Assembly (NCBI GenBank): GCA_965223905.1 | Contig: CBDCXV010000011.1 | Location: 192,001-256,000, forward strand | DNA length: 64,000 bases | DNA from: Candidatus Latescibacterota bacterium | GTDB taxonomy: Bacteria > Latescibacterota > UBA2968 > UBA8231 | Reading direction: 5' to 3' | Shown: positions 44,646 to 61,988 of the stretch, one piece after another | How the letters are laid out: each line of letters starts with the position of its first letter | Numbering within the stretch: the stretch's first letter is position 1 | Position numbers and translations under genes: made by a program | Notes under the pieces: model-generated | The model's input: the letters and a program-made list of their open reading frames with translations, nothing else | Told to the model about the DNA's origin: nothing | Databases searched by the model: none

Positions 44646-44720
44646 GCCGACCGTATCCTTCCCCGGCTGTCAGCCGAACCTCGGATTGTTCCGAGCCATA
44701 TCACTTGATTTCCGGACATT

Positions 44721-45419: not shown

Positions 45420-45474
45420 GCCGCAGGCGCCGCGGTCCCGGCGTGGGGCCGCATCGGAAGCAATCGGGGTGGGA

Positions 45475-46029: not shown

Positions 46030-46089
46030 ATCGATTCGACCAGAGGCACATTCCGGGGAAGGGATTCGAGCAGCGGGAACGTCCCGAAC

Positions 46090-47640
46090 CTACCAGCGAC
46101 CCCAGTCCTCCATATAGTACTGCGCCAGGAGAGGCCGGTCCAGGTGATTCGCCTCCACCTCTACCGGTCTCATGTCCGGCGGAAAAACCGTCATTGGCCG
46201 CAACATTTCCCGCCGCAGGTAGCTTGTCGGCACGGCCAGGGGTGCCTCCGTCAAGGGAGGAAGGGCATCCGCGGCGAGGAAAAAACCCCATTCCCCCAGG
46301 GACGGCACCGGCACGTGGTATGGAACGGCGCGCAACCCGGACTCGGCCAGGGTTTTTCCGATGCTCCAGAAGGTCTTCCTCGTGAAATACGGACTGGTCG
46401 CCTGCGTAACCAGCATCCCCCCCCGAGCCAGATGCCTGCGGAGAAGCCGGTACCCTTCGACCGAATACAGCTTGCTCAGCGAATCGAACCGGGGATCGGG
46501 CAGGTCGACGATGATGACCCCGTAGGGGATTTGCTCCTGCTGAATGAACAGGAAAGCGTCCTCGTTGAGGATGCGGACTTGGGAACGGTTCAGGGCATTG
46601 CGATTGAGATTCGTCATGCGCACGTCGCGACGGGCGAGGTTGGTCACAGCCTCGTCGATGTCGACGAGATCGACTTCTGCGACGTCGGGATACTTCAACA
46701 CCTCGCGTGCCGATAGGCCGTCCCCACCGCCGACGATCAACACCCTTTCCCGGCTGCTGGCCAGGGACATCGCGGGGTGGACGAGGGCCTCGTGATAGCG
46801 GTACTCGTCGGTGGATGAGAACTGCAGATGTCCGTCGAGAAACAGGCTGATCTCCCCCTTCCACTGCGTCAGCACCACCTTCTGATACGGGGATTGAACG
46901 CTGTAGACGATACGATCGCTGTATAGGTTGCTTTCCCAGCGCTCACGCAGTGCTTCCGCGCGCAGCAGAAGGCCCCCGAGCACTGCCGCGAACAGGACGG
47001 ATTGCAGTGCGAGCAAGCGCTTGCGCCTCCCGTTCAGGGCACCGCGGAAGGCGACCAGCAGGGCCACCCCGATACCGACGTTGATACCCCCGGTGACGAG
47101 CGCGGTGTCGAACGTCCCGAGAAGGGGCAGCAGCAGGTAGGGAAAGAGCAGGGCCGCGATCAGCGAGCCGAGGTAGTCGAGGGACAGCAGGTCCGCCAGC
47201 ACCTGCCTCAGGGTTCCGTACTGCCTCAGGATGCGCGCCAGCAGCGGCAACTCCAGTCCGACCATGCCCCCGATGGCCAGAATGAAGAGGATCATCCAGT
47301 AGCGATACTGCCCCGAATACGAGAAGACCGCGTACAAAGCCGGCACAGAACACCCTCCAGCCAGCCCGAGCCAGAGCTCAATCGATATGAACTTGGCCAG
47401 AAGGTCGCGCTCGCAAAGCCTTGAGGCCCAGGAACCTGCTCCCATTGCGGCCAGAAAGAAGCCGATCGTCAGCGAAAACTGTTCGACGCTGTCGCCGAGG
47501 AAGTAGGAAGAAATGGTCCCGATGAGCAGCTCGTAGATGATGGCGCACGCCGCGGCGGCGAAAATCGATGCCAGCAGCAGCGCGACGCCGAGGGTAGATG
47601 TGGCGCTTTCGGCGGATGGAGGGGGCGCCTCGTCAGGCAC
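46090..47640 (-). CDS. Membrane-fused polyamine aminopropyltransferase (spermidine synthase family)
   Basis: About seven N-terminal TMs; QSPYQ, LFLDG.LQFS..DEYRYHEALVH, GGGDG..AREVL, DLPDP. Confidence 0.93.
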   Translation of the reverse strand: MPDEAPPPSAESATSTLGVALLLASIFAAAACAIIYELLIGTISSYFLGDSVEQFSLTIGFFLAAMGAGSWASRLCERDLLAKFISIELWLGLAGGCSVPALYAVFSYSGQYRYWMILFILAIGGMVGLELPLLARILRQYGTLRQVLADLLSLDYLGSLIAALLFPYLLLPLLGTFDTALVTGGINVGIGVALLVAFRGALNGRRKRLLALQSVLFAAVLGGLLLRAEALRERWESNLYSDRIVYSVQSPYQKVVLTQWKGEISLFLDGHLQFSSTDEYRYHEALVHPAMSLASSRERVLIVGGGDGLSAREVLKYPDVAEVDLVDIDEAVTNLARRDVRMTNLNRNALNRSQVRILNEDAFLFIQQEQIPYGVIIVDLPDPRFDSLSKLYSVEGYRLLRRHLARGGMLVTQATSPYFTRKTFWSIGKTLAESGLRAVPYHVPVPSLGEWGFFLAADALPPLTEAPLAVPTSYLRREMLRPMTVFPPDMRPVEVEANHLDRPLLAQYYMEDWGRW

Positions 47641-49309
47641 GGGGCAACCCTTTCAGAGAGGTCTCGTAGGGGATATCGAGAAGATCGAGACACTCCTCGG
47701 CTGCGCGCATCCCGTGGAAGGCCGCCTCCTCAAACAGGGGAAGTCCGGACACGTCGCAGGTGGCGAAGCAGATGGCGCCGCAACGGAGCTTCCTGAGTTG
47801 AAGGTCTCTGCCCCACATGACGTTTGCTTCCGGCCTCACCATCGCGTGCCCCCACAGGTAGAGATCGAGGCGCTCGACGAGGTCCTCGAGTTCGGGGTGA
47901 GCAGGGGTCAGGTCGGACATCACAGCGTCTGCCCAGAACCTGTGGCCCCGGTGCAGCAGGGAGCGGCGGTCCTTTTCGGGATCGCGGGCGAACGGCCGGT
48001 AGTAGACCAGGGTCCTTCCACGTTGCGACACCGGTCCCTGATGGCCGGCGTCGAGGTAGCCGACGGAGGGCCCATCGAAAAGGACGTTGTCCCATGCCAT
48101 CCGTCCGGGTGACAGGTCGTCGGCACCAACCTTGTTAAGGTGCAGGGCAGCGACCAGCCAGGGAGAGTAACGCAACCGGGACATCGCACGGCGCTGCTCC
48201 GCAGGCATTTCCGGGACGACAAAAGGAGCCGTGTGCAGCTTGCCGGCATAGACGACGGAGCGGGAACGCACCCGGTAACTCCGGCCGGATACTACGTCGA
48301 CGCAGGCAAGCTCAGCCCCTTCGGAAGCGGGTCCGATCGCCACTACCGCGGTTTGGGTGCGTAGCTCTTCGGGCAGCAACCGCGTCGCCACCGCCTCCGT
48401 CAGGTAAGCGTTTCCCTGTTCCCAGGTCAGGGTGTCGCTGGGGTATTGGTCGGAGATCCGCGGGTCGTAGAGCCGGCAGGCGAAATAGTGGATCCCGGCC
48501 CAGGCCGAGACATCGCTGCTGAGACAGCCGTAATCATCCCGGCAACAGAAGTCCACCAGCCAGCGCAGCGGCGCGGCCGTCCACTTCCGGCTTTCCATGT
48601 AGTCGGCCATCGATATCCGGTCCAGATCACGGACCCCCGAATCCGCGGTGCTGTAGGCGGCCGGCATGGCGAAACCGCGGCGGCCGTCGCGGCCTGTCAT
48701 AATCGTCCAGCGCAACATCTCGTCCTCGAACTCGCGCCCCTGTTCCACCGCTTCGGAGCCGGCGTTGCGGAGCGGGTCGAGCCCTTCTTCCCAATCCCCT
48801 TCGAGGAAGAGCCGCTCGCGCGGGAATTTGACGAGGTGCTCCGGATTAACCCGCGGCCTTCCGGCGGCGTCGTACCCGGCAATGACCCCGATGTCGGCGA
48901 GCAGCTCGTGGATGCAGTCGGCTTCCGCAGGAGGGATGTTGATGTAGTGTGCTCCCCACGGAAAAACGCGGCCGTCGGTCGACCCGGACATCGAGGTTCC
49001 ACCGGTCCGGGGTTCGAGCTCGAACAGACATAGCCGGTCAACTCCCGCGGCCTTGAGCTTCCAGGCCGCGGCCAGTCCGGAGACACCGCCACCCACGATG
49101 GCGACATCGAGAACCGGCCCCGCGGCAGCGGGGAAATCCTCGGGTGCGTGGCGTGAGCGCAGCAGATGCCCGCGTTGCGCGGAGTGAGCGTTGGCGATCT
49201 CTCCGGGGATCCCGAAAGTGCGGTTTGGCCTGTCTCCGGCGCTTCCGCAGCCGAGGGCAATACCACCCGCCAAGGCCCGCAGGAAGGCTCTCCGCGTCAG
49301 AGGTCTCAT
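47633..49309 (-). CDS. FAD-dependent amine-oxidase-family protein with Tat signal
   Basis: TRRAFL; IVGGGVSGL.AA; PWGAHY; CRDDYG; SAWAGIHYF; WGHAM. Confidence 0.88.
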   Translation of the reverse strand: MRPLTRRAFLRALAGGIALGCGSAGDRPNRTFGIPGEIANAHSAQRGHLLRSRHAPEDFPAAAGPVLDVAIVGGGVSGLAAAWKLKAAGVDRLCLFELEPRTGGTSMSGSTDGRVFPWGAHYINIPPAEADCIHELLADIGVIAGYDAAGRPRVNPEHLVKFPRERLFLEGDWEEGLDPLRNAGSEAVEQGREFEDEMLRWTIMTGRDGRRGFAMPAAYSTADSGVRDLDRISMADYMESRKWTAAPLRWLVDFCCRDDYGCLSSDVSAWAGIHYFACRLYDPRISDQYPSDTLTWEQGNAYLTEAVATRLLPEELRTQTAVVAIGPASEGAELACVDVVSGRSYRVRSRSVVYAGKLHTAPFVVPEMPAEQRRAMSRLRYSPWLVAALHLNKVGADDLSPGRMAWDNVLFDGPSVGYLDAGHQGPVSQRGRTLVYYRPFARDPEKDRRSLLHRGHRFWADAVMSDLTPAHPELEDLVERLDLYLWGHAMVRPEANVMWGRDLQLRKLRCGAICFATCDVSGLPLFEEAAFHGMRAAEECLDLLDIPYETSLKGLPRA

Positions 49310-49431
49310 TTGAGATGGCGGAAACGACCGCTGGGCGGGAGGTCATCCCAATGCAAGGACGCCCGGCAGTGGAGAGAAACCCGCGATGTGAGAAGGGTGG
49401 GAGTAGGTCCTTCCGGTCCTTCCGGTCGGGG

Positions 49432-50139
49432 CTACGACATCCCCATCTTCGACTTGAGCTGGGCCAACGAGTCGTTGGCCTTGGAGGAGGACTCCCCGGC
49501 TAGAGCTTTGTCGATCTCGTCGTCGACTGAGCGCGAGGAATCGGCCATCTCTCCGTACGCTTCGGCCAGCGACTCCTGCTCGTCCACTTTTTCCTTCATG
49601 CGCTCGAGCAGGGCAACCGTGCCGCGGGAATCGACGTTTGCGAGTCTCTGGTTGATCTTCCGGGTCGCGTCCGCGGTCTTGGCCCGCGCTTTGAGCATGG
49701 TCAGGTCGTTTTCGTACGAGGCGAGCTTCGACTTCAGCTCGTTCACGTTGGCCTGGATCTTGTCGACCATTGCGTGCTGGGCCTGGGCCTGCCGGGTCGA
49801 CTCGAGGGCGCGGGTGGTTCCCTCCTCCTTGCGGGTGAGAGCCTCCGTGGCGAGACGCTCGGCATCGCCCATTTCCATGTCACCGGACTGCGCCTTCTGC
49901 AGCAGCAGCATCGCTTTGCGCTCGTAGTCGCCAGCGAGCCGTTTGGCGTCTTCGGCATCTTTGTCCATGCGAATGGCCAGAGCCTTGACTTCGGCCAGAC
50001 TCTTTAGGCTGTCGGCGAGATCCTTCTTGAGGTCCCTGATCGCCTGTTCGCTGATCTTGATCGGATCTTCGAGCTTGTCGACAAGGGCGTGCGCTTCGGC
50101 CTGTCCGGTTTTGAACAGACGTTGAAAAATACCCCCCAT
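49432..50139 (-). CDS. PspA/IM30 (ESCRT-III-like) protein
   Basis: IFQRLF......A.ALVDKLEDP....QAIRDL, long coiled coil, LERMKEKV...E..AEA, LAQLK.KM. Confidence 0.92.
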   Translation of the reverse strand: MGGIFQRLFKTGQAEAHALVDKLEDPIKISEQAIRDLKKDLADSLKSLAEVKALAIRMDKDAEDAKRLAGDYERKAMLLLQKAQSGDMEMGDAERLATEALTRKEEGTTRALESTRQAQAQHAMVDKIQANVNELKSKLASYENDLTMLKARAKTADATRKINQRLANVDSRGTVALLERMKEKVDEQESLAEAYGEMADSSRSVDDEIDKALAGESSSKANDSLAQLKSKMGMS

Positions 50140-50165
50140 GAGTTACCTGCTCCTTCTCTATTGAT

Positions 50166-50579
50166 CTAGGTTTCGGACCCGGGCTGTTGCGCGAACCTCA
50201 GCAGCTCTTCCCCGTTCTCGGCAAGGCCGAGACTGAGGGCGTTGATGGTGGTTTCGAGCTCGTTGAGATCGAGAGTGTCGAGGGCGAGGGTGTTCCGGTA
50301 CAAGAAGGTATCAGCGACATCGTTGAGGACGAAGGCGCCAAACACGAGCTCGCGGTTCATCTGCAAAATTCGTCGGTAAACCTCCGCCCCCGCTTCGGTA
50401 TCGATTTTCATGATCAACTGTTCGAGCACGAGCACCGACTCTTCGCAGTCGATGACGAGGTTGTGAATACCGCGCTCGTGGTCGTTGATGATGACGATCT
50501 CCTCCTCGGGGATTTCCTCGTCGATCTCGAAACCCAGCTCGAGGACATAATCCTTGACCATTTCAAAGCGCTCCGACAT
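50166..50579 (-). CDS. YbjN/CesT-like chaperone
   Basis: Small acidic protein; 'ILQMNRELVFGAFVL....FLYRNTL...LD.NELE..IN'. Confidence 0.8.
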   Translation of the reverse strand: MSERFEMVKDYVLELGFEIDEEIPEEEIVIINDHERGIHNLVIDCEESVLVLEQLIMKIDTEAGAEVYRRILQMNRELVFGAFVLNDVADTFLYRNTLALDTLDLNELETTINALSLGLAENGEELLRFAQQPGSET

Positions 50580-50947
50580 CAATGCTCCTTCTCCCGGTTT
50601 GACAACGCGGTTTCAAGCTCCCTGTAGGCCTTCGTGAGTCGCGCCGTCAGCTCGCCGGCCGTGCGGCGCTTCTCCTCGTCCCGGGCATGTCTGTCTGGGT
50701 GGTATTGCTTCATCATCCGGCGCCATGCGGCGCGCACGGTCTCCAGATCCGACCCGTACGGCAATTCGAGGTTTGCGTAGTACTCGGCCAGAGCCGGGTC
50801 GACATCTGGCCCGGACCCCGTACGCTCCCCCTTGGAATCGGTGTTGTCCCCGTCGAACCCTTCCGCTTCGAACCAGGGTGCCTGCCCGGGTTGGCGATCC
50901 TGAAGCCGCGAGCGGCCGATCTCAAAGAGGCGACGGAAAAGGTTCAT
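50579..50947 (-). CDS. Small J-domain (DnaJ) protein
   Basis: YYANLELP.G...VR.AWR.MMKQYHPD...AY.EL. Confidence 0.9.
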   Translation of the reverse strand: MNLFRRLFEIGRSRLQDRQPGQAPWFEAEGFDGDNTDSKGERTGSGPDVDPALAEYYANLELPYGSDLETVRAAWRRMMKQYHPDRHARDEEKRRTAGELTARLTKAYRELETALSNREKEH

Positions 50948-51011
50948 GGCCCTCGGTGAGCACGGTTCGAATATAGAAGCGCGTGTTCCCCTGGTCCATA
51001 CGGAAACCGCG

Positions 51012-53660
51012 CTAGTACGGCAGGGCCGAGACTGCCTTGCTGATCATCGCCAGGGCCGCGCAGAACATGCCGATCAACGCCATCCCTACCCCGAAGCCGA
51101 CCATCAGGACCATGGCGTAGCGCCGCCACTCCTGTTTGCCGTACCGCTTCCAGAAGTAGAAGCGCGCCATCAGGGCTCCTCCGATCTGCGGCAACAGGTC
51201 GTGGGGAATTCCGTTTACGCTCTGGACGTACCCCCATATCAGGAAAATCGGCAAGCCGAGAAATGCCATGGTGAAGTAGGCGACGAGGCCGAAACCCGCC
51301 GCGAACAGCGAGATCGGCCACTTGCGTCCGTCGAGCGGATGCTGCATGTCGGACTCGTCCGTAACCCCGTCGCCGTCGTCGTCCTCCCCGTTCTTCAGCT
51401 CTTCGTCGACCAGCCCGTCGCCGTCGTTGTCGAGCCGGTCCCCGGTGATGCTGAGATCGCGCCAGTGCGCCTCGAACAGCAGGGGAATGTCGGAGGACCG
51501 TTGCAGGAACTCGCCGTCGAAGGTCGGCAGGCGATCGACCTCGAAGTAGAACTCGACGGAATCCCGGGGAACCGTGCTCAGACGGGCGTCGAAGTTCGGA
51601 TTCGGCGTGTCGATGGTTTCACCGGGCGGCGGCAAAACCAGTTCCGGGGCGGGTGGTTGCCCCTCGAAGGCCCTTTCCTGCGGCGGTGAAAAAGCCCGCA
51701 TGTGCGGCGCTGCGGCAACATCGGGTGGCTGGCGGCCGCTGAAATCGGTGTAGAAATAGCCGGTCTTCGACCACTCGCCGTAGCGGCGCTTGTCGGGGTC
51801 CGGTATCTCGACGTCATGCGAGGCGCGCACCCGCCAGTACCACCAGTAGCCGTCCTGCAGGTTGTGCGGGCTCCACACGATCTGGCCTCGGGAGATGGCC
51901 GTGCCGTCGGCAAGGGACTCCCCTGCTCGCCAGCTTCGGCTGTACATCGTGCTGGAGTAAAAGAGCGCCTGTTGGTACGCCTTGAGGGGCCATATCAGTT
52001 GGGCATAGGGATAACTTTCCGAGGGGATCGGGCCGAGCCGCCACAGGAAGCTCCAGTACATCATGCTGACCACGAGGATGATTGGCAGCATGAAAAGCTC
52101 GGCCTTGAGAAGGCTCGTGAAGCGCATACCGGTCAACTCGACCACCCGGAACCCCTCGGCGTGGCCGCCGTAGTTCCGCGTCGGAAACGGAACGAACCAG
52201 ACGTCTACCCCGCGGTACCCGGTTAGAAAAATGACGGCCTCGTTGACGTATGGTATGGAGACCTCGCGGCCGATCATACCGTCGAGGCGGGCGCTGACGA
52301 ACGACATGATCGGGGCGTACACGAAGGCGATGCAGAAGAAGGTGAGGAGCAGTCCGGTGGTGACCAGCGTCGGGAACAGGGTTTTTGCGAGCACGATCGG
52401 ATAGAAAGCCGCGAGCCCGAACAGCACCAGACAGACCCAGATGTTGAAATCGCCGCGCCCGAGGTGAGTCAGGCAGTACCCGCGTACCTCCGAGGGCCGA
52501 TTACAGCCGTCGTGCCGGCAGGTTCTCGGGTATTCCTTCCGCTGACCTAGGATCCGTTCACGAGCTGCGGCGCGCTCGCGGCGGCCGCTGGCCAGGAGCT
52601 GGTAAAAGCTGATGACGGTGACCGCGGCCGTGATGCCTATGGAGAAGGCCTGCCAGAAATCGATGCTGGTGGCGATCATGGTGTTGATCGTCGTCATCCC
52701 CGGGGCCCAGCTCGGAAGCATTCCTTCCCAGTAGAGAAAGGGGCTGACGACGGTGTGCACGACTACCCCGGAGAAGGAACCGATAACCGCCCAGAAAGGC
52801 ATCAGCAATCCGGCGAATATCGGGCCGAGGTGGAGGGTGATCCCGAGCGGGGTGGCAGGCAGGAGACTTCCGAAAAACGGCGTAAGGTCCCAGAACGGGA
52901 TCGGGATCACCTGGATCCTGGAACCCATCGCCGCGGTCACCTCCGGGATCCCGACGTACACGGAGCCGAAGATCGCGCCGATGACGCCGCCGATGCTGAA
53001 AACCGGCCACTTCCATGTCTCGGCCTCGTCGCCGCTCTCCTCGGCGAGGGCCATGGCGGACAGGGCCGACATCGGCGCCGTCGGAAACGGCAGCTGCTCG
53101 CGGTCCGACATCAACCGGAACAGCAGGTACCCGGACGTGAACCAGGAAATGCGGCCGACGATGGTGCCGATGATGAGCAGGCCGATCGGCCACAGCCAGT
53201 CCGGGTGCAGGAAGGTGCGCTCGGCGAGGGCGACCGAGTCGGGCGGCGGCGCCCACCACGTCGGCAGCAGCTTGGAGATTCCGAACTGTTCCGCCTCCGC
53301 GGAGCGCACGAAATACTGGCGCCACAGCAGGTCGAGAAAAGCCCCTTCCTCGCGCGCCACAAGCGCGCTGCCCACGTACACGAGCAGGAAGATCTCCTGC
53401 CTCTTCAGCGACGTAAACGAGCGCTTGGCGACTTCGAGAAAGAGAATGACGGTTACCCACTGAGCGGCTGACCCAATCGACCCTCCCGTCACCAGGCCGA
53501 GGTACATCTCCCCCGGGGTCATGATCAGGGAGATGAAGAGGACACCGATGATCGTCCGGATCGTAAAGCCGTCCTCGAACTTGTCGGGTGGCTCGAGAAG
53601 CGCCCGGTACTCCTCTACCTCCTGCCACTGGTTCTGCTTGAGCTTGCGCCTGAAGTTCAT
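51012..53660 (-). CDS. OPT-like polytopic transporter with inserted soluble domains
   Basis: Many TMs; 'DREQLPFPTAP' resembles the OPT L.FP motif. Insertions include a Cys/His finger, an FN3-like region and DxDGDG repeats. Confidence 0.7.
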   Translation of the reverse strand: MNFRRKLKQNQWQEVEEYRALLEPPDKFEDGFTIRTIIGVLFISLIMTPGEMYLGLVTGGSIGSAAQWVTVILFLEVAKRSFTSLKRQEIFLLVYVGSALVAREEGAFLDLLWRQYFVRSAEAEQFGISKLLPTWWAPPPDSVALAERTFLHPDWLWPIGLLIIGTIVGRISWFTSGYLLFRLMSDREQLPFPTAPMSALSAMALAEESGDEAETWKWPVFSIGGVIGAIFGSVYVGIPEVTAAMGSRIQVIPIPFWDLTPFFGSLLPATPLGITLHLGPIFAGLLMPFWAVIGSFSGVVVHTVVSPFLYWEGMLPSWAPGMTTINTMIATSIDFWQAFSIGITAAVTVISFYQLLASGRRERAAARERILGQRKEYPRTCRHDGCNRPSEVRGYCLTHLGRGDFNIWVCLVLFGLAAFYPIVLAKTLFPTLVTTGLLLTFFCIAFVYAPIMSFVSARLDGMIGREVSIPYVNEAVIFLTGYRGVDVWFVPFPTRNYGGHAEGFRVVELTGMRFTSLLKAELFMLPIILVVSMMYWSFLWRLGPIPSESYPYAQLIWPLKAYQQALFYSSTMYSRSWRAGESLADGTAISRGQIVWSPHNLQDGYWWYWRVRASHDVEIPDPDKRRYGEWSKTGYFYTDFSGRQPPDVAAAPHMRAFSPPQERAFEGQPPAPELVLPPPGETIDTPNPNFDARLSTVPRDSVEFYFEVDRLPTFDGEFLQRSSDIPLLFEAHWRDLSITGDRLDNDGDGLVDEELKNGEDDDGDGVTDESDMQHPLDGRKWPISLFAAGFGLVAYFTMAFLGLPIFLIWGYVQSVNGIPHDLLPQIGGALMARFYFWKRYGKQEWRRYAMVLMVGFGVGMALIGMFCAALAMISKAVSALPY

Positions 53661-56600
53661 TTCGTAGGTACGGGGGAGCCGAGCATGGCCTTGGCTTTCT
53701 CCCGATGATAATCCCGGGCGTCCGCCTTGAGGGTATGCCAGAGGAGGAACTGCTTGCGCAAGGTGTTCATGAAGCGCTGGTTGACCCGCTGCCAGTAGGT
53801 ATCCTGGCCGCTCAGTCGCTGAATGAATACTTCCACGGAATAGATACCGCTGCCGTCGTTGGCTGGCAGAAAATCGAGCTGCAGGTACTGGCTGACCCCC
53901 ATGTCGAACGGGGCGAGCCAGGTGAGCATCTGCAGAGAGTACTGCCGGACCCCGGGCGCCGGCTCCTCACTGACGAGAGTCACCTTTTCGGCGTAGAAGT
54001 CGCCGATCGACTCTTCCTTGTAGGCGTCGAAAAAGTTCGCCAGGAAACCGGAGATGCCCACAACCTCCCCGGAGCTGACCATGAACGGGAACTCGAACTC
54101 CCAGCGGTCTCCCGTGGGCCGGGGAGGCTTCCATCGTCGCACCAGGTCCGGAACCGCCGCTCGCGACGCGACCCGTGCCGGATAGACCGTAGAGGCGAGC
54201 ACGATCGCCATGACTACCGCCGCAGAGGCCATCGCCGCGTACGAGGAGTAGTTCAAATTGACGCCTGCGGAGAGGTCGAAGGTGACAATCGCCTTTCCGA
54301 GGGTCTGCCCAAGCAGGTAACCCATCGTAACCCCGATGACGGCGTACACACAGGCCTCGGCAATGAACAGCAGGGCGATGTGCATCGGCGCCAGCCCGAC
54401 CGCCGAGTAGATGTCGATCTCGCGAAAACGCTCGTACACCGCCCCCATCATGGCGTTGAGGACGATCAGTCCGGCGATCAACATCGGGATCAGCAGGGCC
54501 TGGAACCCCTCGACCGAGGTCAGCCCCAGGGAGGTGTACGAGGCAACCCTGATGCGGTCCCTTTCCGGGTCGCGCGTCCCCGCGAACAGCGTCATCGGGG
54601 TCTGGGTGATGAACCCTTCGATCATCCCCCGAATGTCGGCCCCGGATTCGAAACGCATGGCCACGGACCTCAGCTCCCCTCCTGCACCGCGCAACGTCTC
54701 GAAGGGCAGAATGACGACGTTGTCCGGATGCAGATGGACAAAGGCCCTGGTCTCTTCCTCCCTTTCCGAGGTGTCCTTGACGTCCTGCGGCCGGGAGCCC
54801 ATCAGTTCGGCCGAGGAGCGGTGAAAATCGACGGGAGTCAGCGGTTCGTCATCGAGGTCGTGCAGGGCGAAAAGGGCATCGGCATCGAACAGTCCCCGCA
54901 CTCGCAGCATGGCCCCGAGGACGCGCACGCTGTCTTCGAGCGTTGGGGCCGCACCGATACCGAGGATCGCCGCCATTTCGACAGGGATCAGGCAGCTCTT
55001 CTCTTCCGGGGAATCGAAATAGTCTCCGGCGACCAAGGCGGCGTGAACCCTCGTTACATCGCGTTCCTGCGGTGAGAGGCCGAGCATCGCGGTGGCCAGT
55101 GAGGAGCGTTCTCCGTGGCTGACCCGGATGTACTTCTTCGCCTCGGAGGGATCGGCGATGTACCAGTTGCGTGGGGAGAGGACGGCGCGTTCGCCGAAGT
55201 AGGACCTCGCCGCCTCAATCTTCCACCTTCCGATCCAGTCCCAGTTGTGATGGCGGATCAGGGCGCCTTCGTATGCCCCCTCGTGCGGGTGAGAAAAGGC
55301 GAAAAACTGGACGTCCGGCTTGAAGGAGGAGAACGACAGGACCGTGAAGGTCAGCAGGGTGATGGTGCCCAAGGTCAGGCTTGTCCGCAGCTTGCGCCTG
55401 CGCATGTTGGAAATCCCGAGCATGAAGGCGGTGTAGGCGGCGCTGAACCGGCTTATGTCGGTCTGGTGCACCCTCGCCTGCTCGGCGCGGTATTCGCGCA
55501 GGTAGCGGTTGAAGCGAGTCACCACCATCAGCAGCACGAAAACCGCCATCGCCATGATGGCGAAAGCGAGCAGGACGACCAGCGGATGGGCGATCGCGAA
55601 GGCGGGATGGACCTGGGAGAGGATCGCCCAGATCACTATCAGGACCGCGACCAAGCCAGTCAGTTGCTTGCGGATATCCGGCGAGGCCAGAAGCAGACGC
55701 TCGGCGAAGAAGGCTGCCGGAATCACCAGTGCGAGGAAAAAAACCATCCCAAGGATCACGTCGTTCAGGGTACCGATCACCGCTGGATAGGCCCGGAAGA
55801 TCATCCCGCCCGCTTCGCGTATGTGGCTTGTGTAGTCGTCCCAGCGGTGCTCGGAAAGGGCAGCCTCAGCCCGATGCAGCAAGCGGCGCCCGTTCTCCTG
55901 AAAACGGGAAACGCTGTGGTTCTCGATGGCGTGCTTGCGCATGGTGTGGAGGCGCGCATCGTTGAGGCGCATCATGTCGCGAACGACGTAGAAGTCCGTC
56001 GGAGTCAGAGTGTCGCGTCTGAAGTGGTAGCCGATTCCCCGCGCCTCGCTCTCGTCGTTTCCGCCCGGGCTGTTCAGTAAATAGCGGGCACCCCCTAACG
56101 TTCCGGCCATGACTTTCAGGCCGTCGGTCTTCTCCGGAAGGTCGCGGTCCGCGTAGACCAAGGCTGCGAAGCTGCTGCGCGAGTACCCGAACTGCCGCGG
56201 TGCGCGGCCGCTGCGGTCGAGGATTTTGAAGCTGTCGGAGCTACCGCCAAGGCCGAAAAGCTCCCCGGGGACACAGGGAAACAGGACGAGGGTCTTCTCG
56301 TCCGCAGTCCACCGGGTTACCCACGATATCTTTCCGCTGAATCCCGGTTCTCCCGCAAACCTCTGCGCCCTTTTACTCAGGTCCGGGGCAAACTGGACCT
56401 CACCCGTCTCCGGATCCAGAACGAAGGCGGAAATACCGGTGGTTTTTCCGACCACGAGGCCTTTCAACGTCACGTCGCCGTCCTGGTTCGTCAGATAATA
56501 GCGTTCCTGTTGGACTCCCTTGTCGACCAGGTCGAACCCTTCGCTGACCACGGCCTGCGGCACCGGGCGGTTGGGAATCTGCGCCCGCCTTGGAAAGGAC

Positions 56601-58078
56601 CGAACCTTGATCTGATGAGTCCGGATGTTGTCGCGAAGAACAGGGTCGAACTCCTCGATATTCGACAGCAGTTCCGGATCGTCGAAAGCCATCGACAGGA
56701 TCCCGTTCAGAAACCGGATCTGGGCGGCCAGCTGTCCGAAGCGGACGCCCTCCGCCCGGTCGAGCGGACTGTTGAGGGAGAGCCTGGCGTCGTGTGTGGT
56801 GACGAAACTGAGGGCGAGTTGCCCGGCTTCCATCGCCACAGTTCCGCTCGTCGGCACTCCGCCGGGTGCCAGGGTGGACCAGTCGATCCCCTTGATCGGG
56901 CTGATGCCGTTGGCGAAAGCCGCGGTTGGCTCACGCCCCTGGGCCGCTGCAACATCTTTGGCGTTCCTGGTGAATCGGCGTGAGAATGGAACGAACAGCC
57001 GCTTGAGCTCAAACCGGTCCGAGTTGTTCCAGATGGCGACCTGGTCGGTCCGCGAGCTCAGGTCGAGACTGATGAAGAGATCGGCATTGAGCGGCTCCTC
57101 CATCCACTTGGCATATTCCTCGTTCTTTCTCGCATGGCGGTCGAGGAACTCGATCATGCCGCGCTGCCCTTGGAAGTGGGCCCCTGTCGCAGACAGGATC
57201 ACCGTGCGGGCCGGCGGGTGCGCTTGCAGGTGCCGCGCCAACTCGAGGAGGGCGACGATGCTGCACGAGGTCTCCGCGGAGGGTGCGAGGGCGGGAACGA
57301 CCGAAATTCCGTCGTAATAGGCGTCGACGACTATGGTCTGGTCCCTCAGCTCCGGGTCCGACCCGACCACCTTTCCCCATATGTTCCACGCCGGCTGCTC
57401 CCGCCAGTCCATGCGGCTGTGGATGACGACGGAAACCGGGTCGCCGCCGGCCACTCGGCGGCGGAGCTTCAGGCCGTTCTCGCGGTCGATCCAGAACCGG
57501 GGGATGTCCAAGGGGACGCTGGTGTACTTGTCGAGGGTCTGCAGGTAGCCGGTGTCCTCCGGCTCGATGAAGATAAAGGCGCGGGCGCCGAACCTGGCTG
57601 CCCGCGTCCAGTGGTCCCAGGTGTTGAACTCCATGAGCACCGCACTGCCCTCCAGCGGAAGTCCCTCGAAGTCGGCGTACTCCCCAAACCCTCCGTACAC
57701 CAGCGACAGCTCGATCCCATCAACCGGTGTAGTGGTGGTGCGCACCTGGTTGGGCCATAACCCAAAAATGGGAATGACCATATCGGAGTCCGAAAGCACC
57801 AGTCGGCTGCCTTCCTCGATCGGTACCCCGACGCCGTACTGTTCGCGACGTATGTCGACACAGTCGCTGCGGCGCAGGTTTTCCTCGATGTAGGAGGCGG
57901 CGCGCGCATTCCCGGGGTACCCCGTGACACGGGACCCTGAGGAAAGGGTTTGTACGGCGGCCTCGACACGGGCGATGAGGTCGGGGGCGACTGTTTCCGG
58001 GGGGTTTGGAAGGGCCCCGGCCGAGGAGGCCACTGCTGCGGCAATGAGGGCGGAGCGGCAGGCGGGCGGCAACCTCAT
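53657..58078 (-). CDS. Giant membrane protein: signal peptide, PA/M28-fold domain, TM block and FtsX/MacB-like permease
   Basis: SRVTGYPGN..A; PA-like segment; 'NIWG...G.DP.L....IVV.AYYD'; 'GISNMRRRKLRTSLT'; 'VYERFREI..YSAVGL.P..I..LF.AEA'; 'YPARVA'. Confidence 0.8.
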   Translation of the reverse strand: MRLPPACRSALIAAAVASSAGALPNPPETVAPDLIARVEAAVQTLSSGSRVTGYPGNARAASYIEENLRRSDCVDIRREQYGVGVPIEEGSRLVLSDSDMVIPIFGLWPNQVRTTTTPVDGIELSLVYGGFGEYADFEGLPLEGSAVLMEFNTWDHWTRAARFGARAFIFIEPEDTGYLQTLDKYTSVPLDIPRFWIDRENGLKLRRRVAGGDPVSVVIHSRMDWREQPAWNIWGKVVGSDPELRDQTIVVDAYYDGISVVPALAPSAETSCSIVALLELARHLQAHPPARTVILSATGAHFQGQRGMIEFLDRHARKNEEYAKWMEEPLNADLFISLDLSSRTDQVAIWNNSDRFELKRLFVPFSRRFTRNAKDVAAAQGREPTAAFANGISPIKGIDWSTLAPGGVPTSGTVAMEAGQLALSFVTTHDARLSLNSPLDRAEGVRFGQLAAQIRFLNGILSMAFDDPELLSNIEEFDPVLRDNIRTHQIKVRSFPRRAQIPNRPVPQAVVSEGFDLVDKGVQQERYYLTNQDGDVTLKGLVVGKTTGISAFVLDPETGEVQFAPDLSKRAQRFAGEPGFSGKISWVTRWTADEKTLVLFPCVPGELFGLGGSSDSFKILDRSGRAPRQFGYSRSSFAALVYADRDLPEKTDGLKVMAGTLGGARYLLNSPGGNDESEARGIGYHFRRDTLTPTDFYVVRDMMRLNDARLHTMRKHAIENHSVSRFQENGRRLLHRAEAALSEHRWDDYTSHIREAGGMIFRAYPAVIGTLNDVILGMVFFLALVIPAAFFAERLLLASPDIRKQLTGLVAVLIVIWAILSQVHPAFAIAHPLVVLLAFAIMAMAVFVLLMVVTRFNRYLREYRAEQARVHQTDISRFSAAYTAFMLGISNMRRRKLRTSLTLGTITLLTFTVLSFSSFKPDVQFFAFSHPHEGAYEGALIRHHNWDWIGRWKIEAARSYFGERAVLSPRNWYIADPSEAKKYIRVSHGERSSLATAMLGLSPQERDVTRVHAALVAGDYFDSPEEKSCLIPVEMAAILGIGAAPTLEDSVRVLGAMLRVRGLFDADALFALHDLDDEPLTPVDFHRSSAELMGSRPQDVKDTSEREEETRAFVHLHPDNVVILPFETLRGAGGELRSVAMRFESGADIRGMIEGFITQTPMTLFAGTRDPERDRIRVASYTSLGLTSVEGFQALLIPMLIAGLIVLNAMMGAVYERFREIDIYSAVGLAPMHIALLFIAEACVYAVIGVTMGYLLGQTLGKAIVTFDLSAGVNLNYSSYAAMASAAVVMAIVLASTVYPARVASRAAVPDLVRRWKPPRPTGDRWEFEFPFMVSSGEVVGISGFLANFFDAYKEESIGDFYAEKVTLVSEEPAPGVRQYSLQMLTWLAPFDMGVSQYLQLDFLPANDGSGIYSVEVFIQRLSGQDTYWQRVNQRFMNTLRKQFLLWHTLKADARDYHREKAKAMLGSPVPTK

Positions 58079-58320
58079 AGAGGGAATCCGAGGGCCCGCG
58101 AAATTACCACGGTGGTGGAAGACAGGCCCCAATACGGTTGGCATGGTTGAAGTAGGAGCCAAGGTATCCCTTCGCCACCGATAGAGCAATCTGGATTTCG
58201 GGCTCCCCCCTTACCGCGTTGACACGGATATCGCACCTGATCGACCTTGTTTCGTAGTTGGACCAGATCCCGAAGCAACAGGCATTGCCAGACTCCGTCC
58301 TCGAGCAGGAGAACGACTGA

Positions 58321-59508
58321 ATGGGCGCCACTGACCGAAAAGCGGAGAAGCAATTCCTGCATCTCGCCCACCGATTTATGTCGCTTCCGACCGCCCCGTT
58401 TCGCGAGCAGTTCGTGATAGAGGCGATCTCGCGCCATGCAGAGGAGCTTGATCTATCGTTTCAGACCGATGCGGCGGGCAATCTCCTGATCGTTTACGAT
58501 GGCGACCGGAATTCGGGACGAGCCCCCCAAGTGGTAATGACGGCCCACATGGACCACCCCGGGCTCCTCTACTCCCAACCTCTCTCCCCCCGCGATCACC
58601 TGTTCGAGCTCGCCGGAAATGTAAATGTCGATCTGGTAAAAAAGGGTGAGGTCGACATCTACGATCCGTCCGGAACCGCCGACCAGACCCCGGTCCGGGG
58701 GGTTATTGGCTCGTATTCCGAGCCAGTTGCAGGAGGGCCGGTTTTTACCGTCCGCATCGCCAAGGCGGATGGCTGGCGGGTAACCTCGGAGTCGTTCGCA
58801 ATGTGGCGGCTTCCCGTGCTGCGGCGACAGGAACGCCGGCTTCGGGGCCGCGCCTGCGACGATCTCGCTGGGGTGGTGGTGGCGCTCGCGGTTATGGAAC
58901 AACTGGCCCGCAGTCGCTCCAAGGTATGCGCCGGCGTGCTGCTGACGCGGGCGGAAGAGACCGGATTCGGCGGCATGATTGCGGCGGTAAGAGGCGATTG
59001 GCTACCGCGAGAGCCGATTTACATCAACATTGAATGCTCAAGCTGCCGCGCCGGGGCGCCCCTGGGGGCAGGTCCGGTAATCCGCGTCGGAGACCGCATA
59101 TCGGTATTCGACCCCGTTCTAAGCGCCGGGCTGGAAGCCATCGCCAAAGGTGAAGTGACCGGCTCCGAGGAGCCGAGATTGCCGTACCAGCGGAAGCTGA
59201 TGGATGGAGGCGCCTGCGAGGCAACGGTCCTGGCGATGGCCGGTTTCCAGGTGGGCGCGGTTGCCCTGCCGCTCGATCATTACCACAATTGGGGAAAGAA
59301 GCGGTTGCGACCCGAAGCAATCGACATCGACGACGCCCTTGCTCTCGTCAACCTCCTTTCCCGCGCCGCGATCTGTCGGGAAGGGGTGGCTGGCGTCGGC
59401 GAAGAAGCGCGGCGTAACATCGAGCGCCGGCTGGACACCCGCTACCAGGGCCAACGGTCGCGCCTGGAGGAAGCCCCATCACCTCGTCCTGTGGGAGCAT
59501 TGCCATGA
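58321..59508 (+). CDS. M20/M25/M40/M42-clan metallopeptidase
   Basis: D..GNL, AHMDH, ACDD.AG, AEE.G, IECS, GG.CE, YHN. Confidence 0.85.
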   Translation: MGATDRKAEKQFLHLAHRFMSLPTAPFREQFVIEAISRHAEELDLSFQTDAAGNLLIVYDGDRNSGRAPQVVMTAHMDHPGLLYSQPLSPRDHLFELAGNVNVDLVKKGEVDIYDPSGTADQTPVRGVIGSYSEPVAGGPVFTVRIAKADGWRVTSESFAMWRLPVLRRQERRLRGRACDDLAGVVVALAVMEQLARSRSKVCAGVLLTRAEETGFGGMIAAVRGDWLPREPIYINIECSSCRAGAPLGAGPVIRVGDRISVFDPVLSAGLEAIAKGEVTGSEEPRLPYQRKLMDGGACEATVLAMAGFQVGAVALPLDHYHNWGKKRLRPEAIDIDDALALVNLLSRAAICREGVAGVGEEARRNIERRLDTRYQGQRSRLEEAPSPRPVGALP

Positions 59509-60269
59509 TGGAAACCGTCGACCTCGGCCTTAGTGGAATCAGAACTTCTCGCCTCTGTTTCGGAACCGGTACCCAAGGGTGGCATCACCGTTCGAACCAG
59601 GGGGATCTCGGTATCGAGCGGCTCTCCTACCTGCTGCGCTACGGCCACGAACGCGGAATCACCTTCTGGGACACAGCCGACATGTACGGAACCCACCCGC
59701 ATGTGGCCGAGGCCCTCCGCCAAGTGGTAAGAGAATCGGTGACAGTTACCTCTAAAACCGTCTCGCGAACCGCGTCAGAGGTGCGCTCGGACGTCGAGCG
59801 ATTCCTGGCGGAGCTGGGAACGGATTACATCGACATCCTGCTGCTGCACTGCCTGACCTCGGCCCATTGGCCGGAGGAGATGAGTGGCCCCATGGACGTT
59901 CTCAGCGAGTTCAAATCCCGAGGTCAGGTGCGGGCCTTGGGCTGTTCCTGCCACGATTTCGGTGCTCTCCGGGCGGCGTCAGAATGCGACTGGGTAGACG
60001 TCAATCTCGTGCGCATCAACCCGGCAGGGCACGCGATGTGTGCGTCTCCCGATCGGGTCATTCCGGTGATCGAGGCGATGGACGCCAGGGGCCAGGGAGT
60101 CTACGGGATGAAGGTCATGGGGGGTGGAAGCGACTTGGCGGCAAATCCCGGCGGGGCGATCGAGTTCATTACGGGCTTACCCGCGGTACACGCCTTTGTC
60201 GTCGGAATGATGGACGAAGGAGAGATCGAGTCCTGCATCGAATTCTCAAACCTCCCCGCCCTGGTCTGA
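59505..60269 (+). CDS. Aldo/keto reductase
   Basis: GITFWDTADMYG, SK, LGTDYIDILLLH, G.VRALG.S.H. Confidence 0.92.
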   Translation: MMETVDLGLSGIRTSRLCFGTGTQGWHHRSNQGDLGIERLSYLLRYGHERGITFWDTADMYGTHPHVAEALRQVVRESVTVTSKTVSRTASEVRSDVERFLAELGTDYIDILLLHCLTSAHWPEEMSGPMDVLSEFKSRGQVRALGCSCHDFGALRAASECDWVDVNLVRINPAGHAMCASPDRVIPVIEAMDARGQGVYGMKVMGGGSDLAANPGGAIEFITGLPAVHAFVVGMMDEGEIESCIEFSNLPALV

Positions 60270-60324
60270 AACCGCCGCGGCTTTTGCCCGGCCTGACCGT
60301 TCTCCGGAAACCAACGGCGGTTCC

Positions 60325-61101
60325 CTAGACGATCGTCCAGCCTCCGTCGACGACGAGGGTGTGACCGGTCACCATGCTGGCGGCCTCGGAAGCGAGGAAA
60401 ATCACCGGGCCTGAGATCTCTTCCGGTTCGGCGAGGTCTCCGCGCAGCAGATTCTTGGTACGCACCGCTTCGCGAAACGCCGCGCTCGCCTTAAGCGCCC
60501 CCTCCGCCAAGGGCGACCGCGTTACCGTAGGGGCCACCGCATTAACGCGGATTCCGAATTCCGCCCATTCCGCGGCCATGGTCCGCGTCAGGTTGTTCAC
60601 CCCGCCCTTAGCACCGCTGTACGGACCCCGTTCAGGAGCACCCACGACGCCGGCCTGCGACGAGATGTTGACGATACTGCCGCCGTTGCCTGCCGCGATC
60701 ATTTTCCTGGCCGCTATCTGACTGCAGAAGAAGACGTTCTTGAGGTTGGCGTCGACGATCTGATGGTAGAGTTCTTCGTCGTAATCGAGGATCTTGCCCA
60801 GCTTGTTGTACCCGGCGTTGTTGACAAGCACGTCGACGCGCCCGAACTCGGCGACCACCGCGTCGAAAAAAGCCTGTATCGAGGCGACGTCGACGACGTC
60901 CAGGGGATGGTAGAAACAGTTCCTCCCGATCTTTTGGATTTCTTCGGCCAGCGTTTCCAGCTCATTCAGGGTGCGGCTGCCGGCAGCCACGTCTGCCCCC
61001 GAGCGCGCCGCGTCGAGGGCAATCGTGCGACCGATACCGCGGCCGGCGCCGGTGACTACGACGATTTTTTCCTTCAGCTCGAAGCGTTCGAGGTGTCCCA
61101 A
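60325..61101 (-). CDS. SDR oxidoreductase
   Basis: TGAGRGIG, NNAG, YSGAK, IRVNAVAP, VDGG. Confidence 0.93.
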   Translation of the reverse strand: MGHLERFELKEKIVVVTGAGRGIGRTIALDAARSGADVAAGSRTLNELETLAEEIQKIGRNCFYHPLDVVDVASIQAFFDAVVAEFGRVDVLVNNAGYNKLGKILDYDEELYHQIVDANLKNVFFCSQIAARKMIAAGNGGSIVNISSQAGVVGAPERGPYSGAKGGVNNLTRTMAAEWAEFGIRVNAVAPTVTRSPLAEGALKASAAFREAVRTKNLLRGDLAEPEEISGPVIFLASEAASMVTGHTLVVDGGWTIV

Positions 61102-61150
61102 ATTTCCTTCCTTCCGGTTGGTTACGAGGCCTGCGAAATCTTTATGGGCC

Positions 61151-61912
61151 TCAGGAAAGCCCCATGGCCTGCAGGTTCTTCAAGCTCGTGCCGAGGCTCT
61201 CGAAAGGGTCGCGCAGGCATTGGTCCTGCTCGACGAGATAATATTCGATGCCGGCTTCCCTGCAGGCGGCCAGGATCGGCCCCCATTCCAGGTTGCCTTC
61301 CCCGACCTCGGCGAACAACTGCCGGCTACCGCTCATCGCCATGTCCTTGAGGTGTACGAGGTGCATGCGCCCGCACAGCCGCCGAACCCAGGAAACCGGG
61401 TTCCCTCCCCCGTGTTGGATCCAGTAGGTATCCACTTCGAAGCAGAACACGTCAGGGTCGCTCTCCGCGGCGAGTATCTCGAGCCCGGTGCGGCCCCCGA
61501 AGCGCTCGAGCTCGAAGCTGTGGTTGTGATAGCTGAACGTCAGTCCTGCATCGATCAGGGGACGTGCCGTCCGCGAGGCATCGGCTGCGAAACGCGCGAA
61601 CCCGTCGGCGTTGCGGTATTCCGCTGGCATGCCTCCGATGCCGACGTGCCGGCAGTTCCACAGCCGGTGTTCCGCGATCACCGACTCGACGTCATCCCGT
61701 ACGCGGTCGTAGCTGACGTGGGTGGCGGCAATGGCGACGCCGGCCTCGTCGGCAAAATCGGAAATCTCCTGCGGGGTTCCGGCTCCGTGGCCGGATAGCT
61801 GCGCTGCGGTATACCCCAACTCGCTGACCCTCCTGAGGGTGGCGCGAATGTCCTCCGTGGTTTGGAGGTAATCCCGCAGGGTGAATAGCTGCGCCCCAAT
61901 CATCGATGACAC
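61151..61912 (-). CDS. Sugar phosphate isomerase/epimerase (TIM barrel)
   Basis: QLFTLRD, YHNHSFE, EVDTYW, HLKD, EVGEG.L.W, VEQD. Confidence 0.9.
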   Translation of the reverse strand: MSSMIGAQLFTLRDYLQTTEDIRATLRRVSELGYTAAQLSGHGAGTPQEISDFADEAGVAIAATHVSYDRVRDDVESVIAEHRLWNCRHVGIGGMPAEYRNADGFARFAADASRTARPLIDAGLTFSYHNHSFELERFGGRTGLEILAAESDPDVFCFEVDTYWIQHGGGNPVSWVRRLCGRMHLVHLKDMAMSGSRQLFAEVGEGNLEWGPILAACREAGIEYYLVEQDQCLRDPFESLGTSLKNLQAMGLS

Positions 61913-61988
61913 GGTTCACATCTCCATTGGCGGGTAGAACGGCCCTACCATAGGGATCGCCCCCGGCACCGGTCAAATCACTTCTCGA

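Follow-up and report, generated by a model that had tools for sequence, protein, structure and literature searches.

How can a permease of the MacB/FtsX kind, which normally needs an ABC ATPase, work from a locus that has none, and why should its gene overlap that of a transporter-like protein of the OPT kind? The question is raised by two genes in a stretch of 64,000 nucleotides (the window; G000:C11:192001-256000) from the 7.9-Mb, 11-contig assembly of an uncultured Latescibacterota bacterium. One encodes a very large protein with a MacB/FtsX-type module, here called the giant; the other encodes a polytopic protein that we call the partner, or type A (Table 1). A preliminary description of the window had put the two forward as a capture-and-import or mechanotransmission complex. 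In the view toward which our analysis leans, the pair forms the core, within the membrane, of a type VII ABC system (of the MacB/LolCDE/FtsEX kind) to which an OPT-fold permease is coupled; its motor would be an ATPase encoded elsewhere in the genome, and its task is probably the uptake of a peptide-like nutrient.

The giant, its partner and their pairing

Both open reading frames (ORFs) lie on the minus strand at the places first reported for them, and they do overlap: the ATG of the partner opens on the third A of the giant's closing ...AAA TGA, giving a 4-base overlap. The giant's frame (1510 amino acids (aa), 53657-58189) stays open up to a TTG at 58189, and its first ATG is at 58078. As first suggested, both proteins belong to paralogous families in an uncultured phylum: this genome alone holds seven giant paralogs and four full-length partner paralogs, and every partner lies beside a giant, three within about 90 bp and one about 1.2 kb upstream. 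The named relatives of both proteins (120 listed for each) come from Latescibacterota metagenome-assembled genomes, some filed as Gemmatimonadota.

The pair keeps its company and its order across the phylum. In a sample of 151 genomes, the giant was found in 138 and the partner in 137; the single discordant genome, with one of the pair only, is 57% complete, and neither protein was found in any of the 13 genomes of family f10. Among the best 51 partner rows (at least 65% identity), 46 follow a listed giant on its own strand at a distance of 0-128 bp, the five exceptions being three at contig ends and two with an 11.5-kb gap. A second sample, of 80 related loci taken from GTDB species genomes, shows an OPT-like gene within 300 bp of the giant or fused to it in 71. 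Type A lies downstream in 58 of the 80 (56 of the 76 with enough flank); the other OPT-like type, DUF6785, is adjacent to the giant in 39 and fused to it in 7, while 33 loci have the two types together. Nine loci have no OPT-like gene near: two are on short contigs, and in six a DUF6785 gene stands upstream at 0.7-3.8 kb. Databases, too, contain giant-DUF6785 fusions, of 2100-2300 aa (P0175, P0180, P0184), and paralog g5 of this genome is another. The pairing is not a product of chance, and, as far as sequence can tell, the two genes are translationally coupled.

The OPT-like character first ascribed to the partner is borne out at the level of fold. At E ≤ 0.001, its predicted structure (pLDDT 82, pTM 0.82) has only two structure matches, both of barley Yellow Stripe 1 (7wst and 7wsr); the match to 7wst has E 9.5e-8, probability 1.00 and TM 0.53 (target-normalised) over 573 columns, and the next-best other match has E 0.05. 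The Pfam OPT model PF03169 gives no match at E ≤ 1 in the partner's own sequence and no match in the whole genome; other Pfam and NCBIfam models match the partner below threshold only. It is matched by 8 of 38 diverse members of the partner-family alignment (A2; best E 2e-13), and one relative is named OPT family protein by JGI. The family profile gave nothing meaningful against PDB sequences (one match, E 0.62). Regular membership of the OPT family (TC 2.A.67) was considered for the partner and rejected, its own sequence failing the Pfam OPT model. Because the protein has no such match of its own and 8 of the 38 family members do, it is best described as a divergent sister family with the OPT/Yellow-Stripe fold, outside regular OPT membership. 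That family comprises 932 cluster representatives at E ≤ 0.001 in an exhaustive representative search.

The partner shares its fold with the Yellow Stripe-like proteins (PF03169; 7wsr, 7wst) but differs from them in its constant neighbor in this genome, the FtsX-type giant, and in two features of its own. One is a Cys/His loop, in a part modelled with low confidence (pLDDT 51-57), that weakly matches Zf_WRKY19 (E 0.042; E 0.0011 in one other family member). The other is a large, swappable extracytoplasmic insert, which matches acid_disulf_rpt at E 4e-4, under the cut-off of that model. In 44 of the 120 listed partner orthologues, forms of 970-1115 aa, PDZ domains stand in place of the acidic insert; WD40, Reg_prop or FGE-sulfatase domains occur in single family members.

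For the giant, the FtsX module, the transmembrane (TM) block, the MacB-like domain and the C-terminal domain of the preliminary description all hold, and the M28-like head holds by family profile, with its canonical catalytic residues altered. Searches with Pfam and NCBIfam gave FtsX-type matches only, the FtsX model PF02687 covering residues 1196-1306 (E 8e-11; 42 bits, where the model's cut-off is 25.5). A profile of 48 aligned family members (A1) matches MacB, YtrF, LolC and LolF in its C-terminal part. An AlphaFold model of residues 773-1473 (the C-half; mean pLDDT 79) has a four-TM module whose first two helices flank a large periplasmic domain. Its relatives by Foldseek are MacB (5gko, E 2e-12) and also LolCDE, HrtBA, YtrEF, YbbAP and BceAB; by VIA they are YtrF (Z 16.2) and the MacB periplasmic region (3ftj, Z 13.9, rmsd 3.2, 176 aligned). 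The three extra helices appear both in hydropathy (774-792, about 805-827 and 834-852) and in the C-half model (model residues 2-24, 30-51 and 60-95).

Across the 48 sequences, the cytoplasmic loop between TM2 and TM3 is among the giant's most conserved stretches, with N1208, M1210, V1214, E1216, R1217, Y1224, G1228, L1229, A1230, P1231 and H1233 invariant. In MacB this loop forms the major coupling helix, in contact with the ATPase (PMC5985334), and the conserved loop of the giant occupies the same place. After TM4, residues ~1320-1452 form a confidently modelled alpha/beta domain without ATPase features. Its best VIA matches are the Aha1 C-domain, Bet v 1/START-like (helix-grip) folds and KA1 (~111-114 aligned, rmsd ~3.3-3.6), at Z 7.0-7.9, a middling range common by chance, and Atlas gave no usable match. 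Aha1, START and KA1 were dropped as candidate families, and we withhold an assignment because Z values of 7-8 may reflect a common arrangement. The soluble region before the helices (residues 451-772) has no Pfam and no PDB-profile match; in Atlas, residues 450-772 meet solely unnamed clusters (scores ≤ 0.82).

The periplasmic head is seen through the family, the giant's own sequence having no PA/M28 Pfam match at E ≤ 1. Over profile positions 22-312, A1 matches PA-containing M28 aminopeptidases (2ek8, E 7e-15; YwaD 6hc6, E 7e-11), with weaker matches to the transferrin receptor and nicalin. PF04389 is precomputed on 38 of the 120 listed giant relatives (MacB_PCD on 33) and also matches one paralog piece of the same genome (E 1.9e-5). 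M28 enzymes hold their co-catalytic zincs and general base by H, D, E-E, D/E and H. In alignments of the giant to 2ek8 and 6hc6, the HHD of M28 reads YYD (Y253/Y254, with D256 kept), the bridging Asp becomes Glu269, and the catalytic/ligand Glu-Glu becomes His301-Phe302; the fifth and last metal ligand, a His, fell outside the alignment. Because His, Glu-Glu and bridging Asp are replaced, canonical two-zinc chemistry is improbable in the predicted head, though a remodelled site is conserved: D256, E269, H301 and D339 are invariant across the 48 family members.

The ATPase question

Where is the ATPase that such a module would need? This genome has 76 ABC_tran and 45 FtsX matches in total. Apart from the giants, 37 of the 38 FtsX matches have an ABC_tran match within 8 kb, and the last has one 8.3 kb off, inside a large cluster. 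For the seven giants the nearest ABC_tran match lies at 187 kb (the window giant), 21, 32, 177, 18, 34 and 92 kb, so that none of the seven has one within 18 kb. The 80 loci look much the same, 76 being without any ABC match within 10 kb of the giant. In one of the four that have such a match, L084, the order is ATPase - DUF6785 - giant - type A, and the vicinity contains no further FtsX gene. The remaining three were rejected as the giant's ATPase: the match of L100 belongs to a pair of a mini-FtsX protein and an ATPase, and those of L041 and L044 are other ABC types.

The statement that no ABC ATPase is adjacent therefore stands for the window; it does not carry over to the sister families f2 and f3. 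We fetched 12 of their loci, a biased choice, picked because an ATPase match lay near the giant. In 11 of them a MacB/LolD-type ATPase lies 0.6-1.8 kb upstream of the DUF6785-giant genes on the same strand (5.4 kb in the twelfth); type A is labelled downstream in 8, with 3 ambiguous in ORF picking (opposite-strand frames were kept) and 1 at a contig end. The genome of the window, for its part, has an orphan ATPase (G000:C11:833623-834375), a MacB/LolD-type protein of 250 aa encoded downstream of uvrB, without a neighboring permease; among NCBIfam models it is closest to LolD (TIGR02211), at 221 bits and so short of the cut-off. Its orthologues in family f1 are 80-98% identical; its best matches in f2 and f3 reach 51-58% and often precede a giant by ~3 kb. 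A maximum-likelihood tree built from 34 ATPases unites 13 cis ATPases (those encoded beside giants), the orphan and the ATPase linked to mini-FtsX in one clade (support 99/99). Because the sister families have an upstream ATPase and this genome has an orphan of the same clade, the local absence reflects how this family arranges its genes; it does not characterise the system as a whole.

The three-way split within that clade is not resolved, so the orthology of orphan and cis ATPases rests on elimination: since f3 genomes with a cis ATPase also keep the mini-FtsX pair (5 of 5 tested, with its ATPase 82% identical to that of this genome), the orphan would be the counterpart of the cis ATPase of the sister families. 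The cis ATPases may be transcribed apart from their clusters, given the 0.6-1.8 kb gap to the next gene. Docking of the giant's C-half with the orphan ATPase gave an ipSAE of 0.34 (runs 0.38, 0.32 and 0.34; best of three controls 0.00), a weak score for a textbook-type complex, whose pass may reflect memory of solved MacB complexes; docking-partner pLDDT was at least 74, and the runs agreed in at least 42% of contacts. In calibration, 116 of 157 solved complexes passed the mark, as did 2 of 215 mismatched pairs; with scores ≤ 0.60, only 18 of the 157 passed, together with both mismatches.

The mini-FtsX pair deserves a description of its own. The permease has 237 aa, with no room for a periplasmic domain, and stands directly upstream of a 262-aa ATPase (G000:C1:853461-854993, or L104 4461-5993, minus strand). 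In the five f3 genomes the two proteins are 58% (FtsX) and 82% (ATPase) identical to those found here, and in L100 the distance from this pair to a giant and its partner is 4 kb. The mini-FtsX pair may be a small type VII system in its own right, or else the giants may use it as a heterodimer partner. The same genome carries two large arrays of duplicated ADOP-like FtsX permeases of 800-1050 aa (G000:C1:574543-588394 and C11:1653396-1664955), with near-identical ATPases (tree branch lengths 0-0.005); they look like a recent large duplication between contigs.

The second OPT-like subunit and the neighborhood

The usual module contains a second OPT-like subunit, DUF6785/DUF6784, upstream of the giant or fused to it, and the usual gene order is DUF6785 - giant - type A. 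The partner family is a distant homologue of this subunit (PF20581/PF20580; hhalign against 33 copies from this genome, probability 98.3%, E 1.7e-14, 580 columns). The partner itself has no direct Pfam match to PF20581 or PF20580, and DUF6785 was not seen among the 25 shown of the 34 families matched by partner-family members. In all three genomes of the genus the locus has no DUF6785 gene, and the giant starts directly after the divergent M42-like gene; in other genera DUF6785 stands between these two. The window copy is a reduced form of the system, with neither a DUF6785 subunit nor a cis ATPase.

DUF6785 is itself expanded in this genome: PF20581 gives 58 matches in ~47 genes (for example C10:1856376-1857863 and C11:1746989-1748503; none in the window), and 0 of 14 control genomes have any. 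Most of these genes are far from any giant. Their neighbors include FG-GAP proteins (14 genes at 9 loci), secreted proteins with CHU_C/FlgD-Ig tails (13 at 11) and enolase-type MR_MLE proteins (7), together with PhyH dioxygenases, GFO/IDH/MocA oxidoreductases, GHL10, DUF4838, FGE-sulfatase and subtilases. By this company, the expansion looks like a set of phylum-specific nutrient permeases in polysaccharide-utilisation-like loci.

Three giant paralogs carry features of their own. Between giant g2 and a DUF6785 gene lies a 50-residue type-A fragment (C11:1927974-1928123) with 64% identity and a single in-frame TGA, probably what is left of a partner gene after decay. Paralog g5 (G000:C10:604216-610162, L019) is read in three frames, as a 453-aa N-terminal M28-like piece, a short middle piece and a 2315-aa FtsX-DUF6785 frame, and is either a natural split and fusion or a frameshift. 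Paralog g4 (G000:C10:2125012-2127831, L020 11012-13831, plus strand) has no OPT-like neighbor; a divergent ExbD gene precedes it, and a 939-aa UPF0182 membrane protein (PF03699, E 2e-288) follows.

Table 1. Positions within the window of the gene pair, its domains and the neighboring genes.
Feature	Position	Strand	Basis and remarks
Giant gene, 1473 aa	53657..58078	minus	ATG at 58078; N-terminal hydrophobic signal-like segment, then domains
PA/M28-like head, periplasmic, residues ~22-450	56729..58015	minus	family profile match
Soluble region, ~320 aa, residues 451-772	55763..56728	minus	fold without assignment
Three extra TM helices, residues 773-855	55514..55762	minus	hydropathy and model; precede FtsX module
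MacB/FtsX-type module, residues ~885-1305	54164..55426	minus	TM1, MacB-like periplasmic domain of ~250 aa, TM2-4
Cytoplasmic C-terminal alpha/beta domain, residues 1306-1473	53660..54163	minus	high pLDDT
ATGA overlap	53657..53660	minus	giant stop overlaps partner start
OPT-fold partner (type A), 882 aa, polytopic	51012..53660	minus	ORF, model, family profile
Cys/His-rich loop C-x4-C-x10-C-x2-H, residues 379-399	52464..52526	minus	between TM helices
Extracytoplasmic insert, residues ~570-780	51321..51953	minus	beta-rich with acidic Asp/Gly repeat (model)
J-domain protein	50579-50947	minus	Pfam
YbjN/CesT-like protein	50166-50582	minus	Pfam
PspA	49432-50139	minus	Pfam
Psp-type cluster	43800-50947	minus	tightly packed downstream of partner; J-domain, YbjN/CesT-like, PspA, then others
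M42/M20-type aminopeptidase-like gene	58321..59508	plus	Pfam M42, E 3e-16; divergent from giant
Upstream block	58321-63245		M42/M20-like (+), aldo-keto reductase (+), SDR (-), 253-aa ORF (-), MFS_3 transporter (-)

Downstream of the partner, the remainder of the Psp-type cluster encodes an amine oxidase, a 516-aa membrane spermidine-synthase-like protein, an ORF without assignment and a DUF350 protein. The whole presumably resembles the yjf PspA-paralog cluster of E. coli, and its first five genes trail the partner in 14-16 of the 80 loci (the orthologous group). On the other side, the M42-like gene stands divergently upstream in 16 of the 80. The upstream block, whose 253-aa ORF has a weak likeness to myo-inosose dehydratase, is wholly kept in the genus, and its aldo-keto reductase recurs in just one of the 80 wider loci. 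The neighborhood of the pair in the window was found to contain neither a MacA/HlyD-type adaptor nor TolC nor a LolA-like gene. Loci of the giant paralogs hold a TonB-dependent receptor, ExbB, ExbD and GFO/IDH/MocA oxidoreductases.

Four metatranscriptome runs of one study, labelled sponge metagenome, contain 21-28% of the stretch's sampled words. RNA-library contigs (at least 95% identity, low depth) bridge both the giant/partner junction (53432-53957 and 53468-53732) and the partner/J-domain junction (50527-51140 and 50862-51084). A promoter and terminator scan of 49300-58700 gave counts at the level of shuffled sequence (2 against 1.3 and 7 against 6.4), with no terminator-like site on the minus strand between the partner and the J-domain gene.

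Mode of action and relation to known systems

How might the parts work together? In the proposal that we favor, the giant would hold an altered PA/M28 head and a MacB-type domain in the periplasm, both carried on the four-TM FtsX module. The motor, a MacB/LolD-type ATPase from another locus, would dock on the TM2-TM3 loop and power mechanotransmission; the orphan is the candidate, possibly common to all seven giant paralogs. The head would capture a peptide-like nutrient in the periplasm and pass it on to the OPT-fold partner, through which it would enter the cell. We infer the physical complex, the ATPase used, the direction of transport and the substrate, and with them the capture-and-import role of the pair. 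Peptide-like nutrient uptake is probably the function, to judge from gene content and domain likeness, because many orthologues have PDZ domains, the head is of the PA/M28 type, an M42-like peptidase gene is conserved nearby and some paralog loci have TonB-type genes. The carbohydrate-type neighbors of DUF6785 and the Psp-type neighbors of the pair keep other substrates, and a role in the envelope, in contention.

Several observations weigh against this proposal. No ABC_tran match lies within 18 kb of any giant in this genome, and the candidate motor is tied to the cis ATPases through a clade whose internal order is not settled. The 12 loci were chosen with bias, the cis ATPase genes stand 0.6-1.8 kb from the next gene, and the docking score of the orphan with the giant is weak. 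The head has not kept the canonical M28 catalytic residues, and the alignment does not reach its last metal ligand. The neighbors of the ~47 DUF6785 genes look carbohydrate-related, not peptide-related, so that the substrate may be of another class. The conserved Psp-type genes downstream suit an envelope role as well as uptake, and the bridging RNA-library contigs, at low depth, may include DNA carry-over, a two-gene contig being no proof of one transcript.

Could the system do without an ATPase altogether? The giant might be a membrane-anchored periplasmic receptor or scaffold for a proton-driven symporter of the OPT type, its FtsX module serving only as anchor or conformational relay and its cytoplasmic C-domain taking the place of the ATPase. 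OPT transporters are ion-driven importers of peptides or metal chelates, the extra cytoplasmic domain after TM4 is conserved, and the ATPase is missing within 18 kb of all seven copies and within 10 kb in 76 of the 80 loci. Against this stand the ATPases of one clade upstream of the cluster in sister families, the partnerless ATPase of that clade in this genome, and a TM2-TM3 loop that ranks among the protein's most conserved stretches; we judge such an ATPase-independent accessory unlikely. That the two genes are mere neighbors without a common function is very improbable: the contact between giant and type A is putative, but the ATGA overlap, the matching presence and absence over 151 genomes, the constant order in 46 of 51 rows and the fusions of giants to the related DUF6785 protein all speak for a joint role.

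The pair might instead maintain the envelope or export material, the giant extracting a hydrophobic or periplasmic molecule (a lipid, lipoprotein or peptide) out of the inner membrane or the periplasm, as in LolCDE, MacAB or YbbAP-TesA, and the OPT-fold protein acting as conduit or flippase, in connection with the Psp-type stress genes. The J-domain, YbjN and PspA genes that trail the partner in 14-16 of the 80 loci, with RNA contigs bridging the junction, fit such a role, as does the weak likeness of the C-domain to lipid-binding helix-grip and KA1 folds, a likeness that lies, however, in the chance-prone range. The type VII ABC systems characterised so far all act outward or within the envelope (PMC5985334, PMC12646458). 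The PDZ domains, the M42 peptidase, the TonB-dependent receptor and the ExbBD contexts suit uptake better, and the window neighborhood has no MacA/HlyD-type adaptor, TolC or LolA-like gene. Members of the OPT family are, to our knowledge, importers, which likewise tells against export. We consider this envelope role quite unlikely, and return to the ABC-driven importer.

It is instructive to compare the pair with the systems that it most resembles. With the type VII ABC transporters (MacB of MacAB-TolC, LolCDE, FtsEX-EnvC, YbbAP-TesA, HrtBA, YtrEF, BceAB) the giant shares the four-TM FtsX module and the periplasmic domain that separates TM1 from TM2, and the sister-family clusters adjoin a MacB/LolD-type ATPase, whose gene is unlinked in the family of the window. 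FtsEX-EnvC and YbbAP-TesA likewise combine the module with a hydrolase-type periplasmic element (PMC12646458). The giant instead fuses a hydrolase-like head, without canonical catalytic residues, to the permease; it adds three TM helices and a cytoplasmic C-domain, and it comes with polytopic proteins of the OPT fold, at times as one fused chain, which is known of no described type VII system. The head matches the PA and M28 N-terminal parts of the PA-domain aminopeptidases (2ek8, YwaD 6hc6) but has Tyr, His-Phe and Glu in place of His, Glu-Glu and the bridging Asp and is tethered to a membrane module; among non-catalytic M28 relatives, the transferrin receptor and nicalin are its weaker profile matches. 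The partner, a distant homologue of DUF6785/DUF6784, lacks that usual second subunit at the window locus in all three genomes of the genus. A single ATPase for several permeases has a precedent in MsiK of Streptomyces, an unlinked ATPase common to several ABC systems. Here seven giant paralogs would face one orphan ATPase of the matching clade; such sharing is a proposal, and MsiK-type systems, unlike the giants, are type I importers with binding proteins.

All parts come from known superfamilies; the combination and the probable mode of action are undescribed. As the preliminary description held, no characterised system appears to join an FtsX-type protein to an OPT-type protein: a literature search, with subscription journals outside its reach, found no paper on the giant/OPT pairing or on a type VII ABC system with an OPT partner, and none on DUF6785, DUF6784, PF20581 or PF20580. 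Type VII ABC systems have known roles in efflux, in the release of lipoproteins, in controlling cell-wall hydrolases and in extracting lipids; none is known to act together with another transporter family, and OPT proteins are regarded as stand-alone ion-driven importers. A bolder reading, which we hold tentatively and regard as somewhat doubtful, is that the pair represents a hybrid class of primary and secondary transporter, in which an ATP-driven MacB-type unit with a pseudo-peptidase head gates or feeds OPT-fold channels and one unlinked ATPase serves seven paralogous heads of differing specificity. If true, this would be a new ABC-dependent importer without a classical ABC transmembrane domain and without a free binding protein.

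The puzzle of the missing ATPase has become a testable proposal with one named orphan ATPase, and the four-gene ATPase-DUF6785-giant-partner clusters of the sister families are better exemplars for experiments than the window copy. The pairing occurs in about nine in ten of the sampled genomes of the phylum, often in several copies each, and points to an undescribed inner-membrane transport route in abundant uncultured bacteria, represented here by a lineage from sponge samples.

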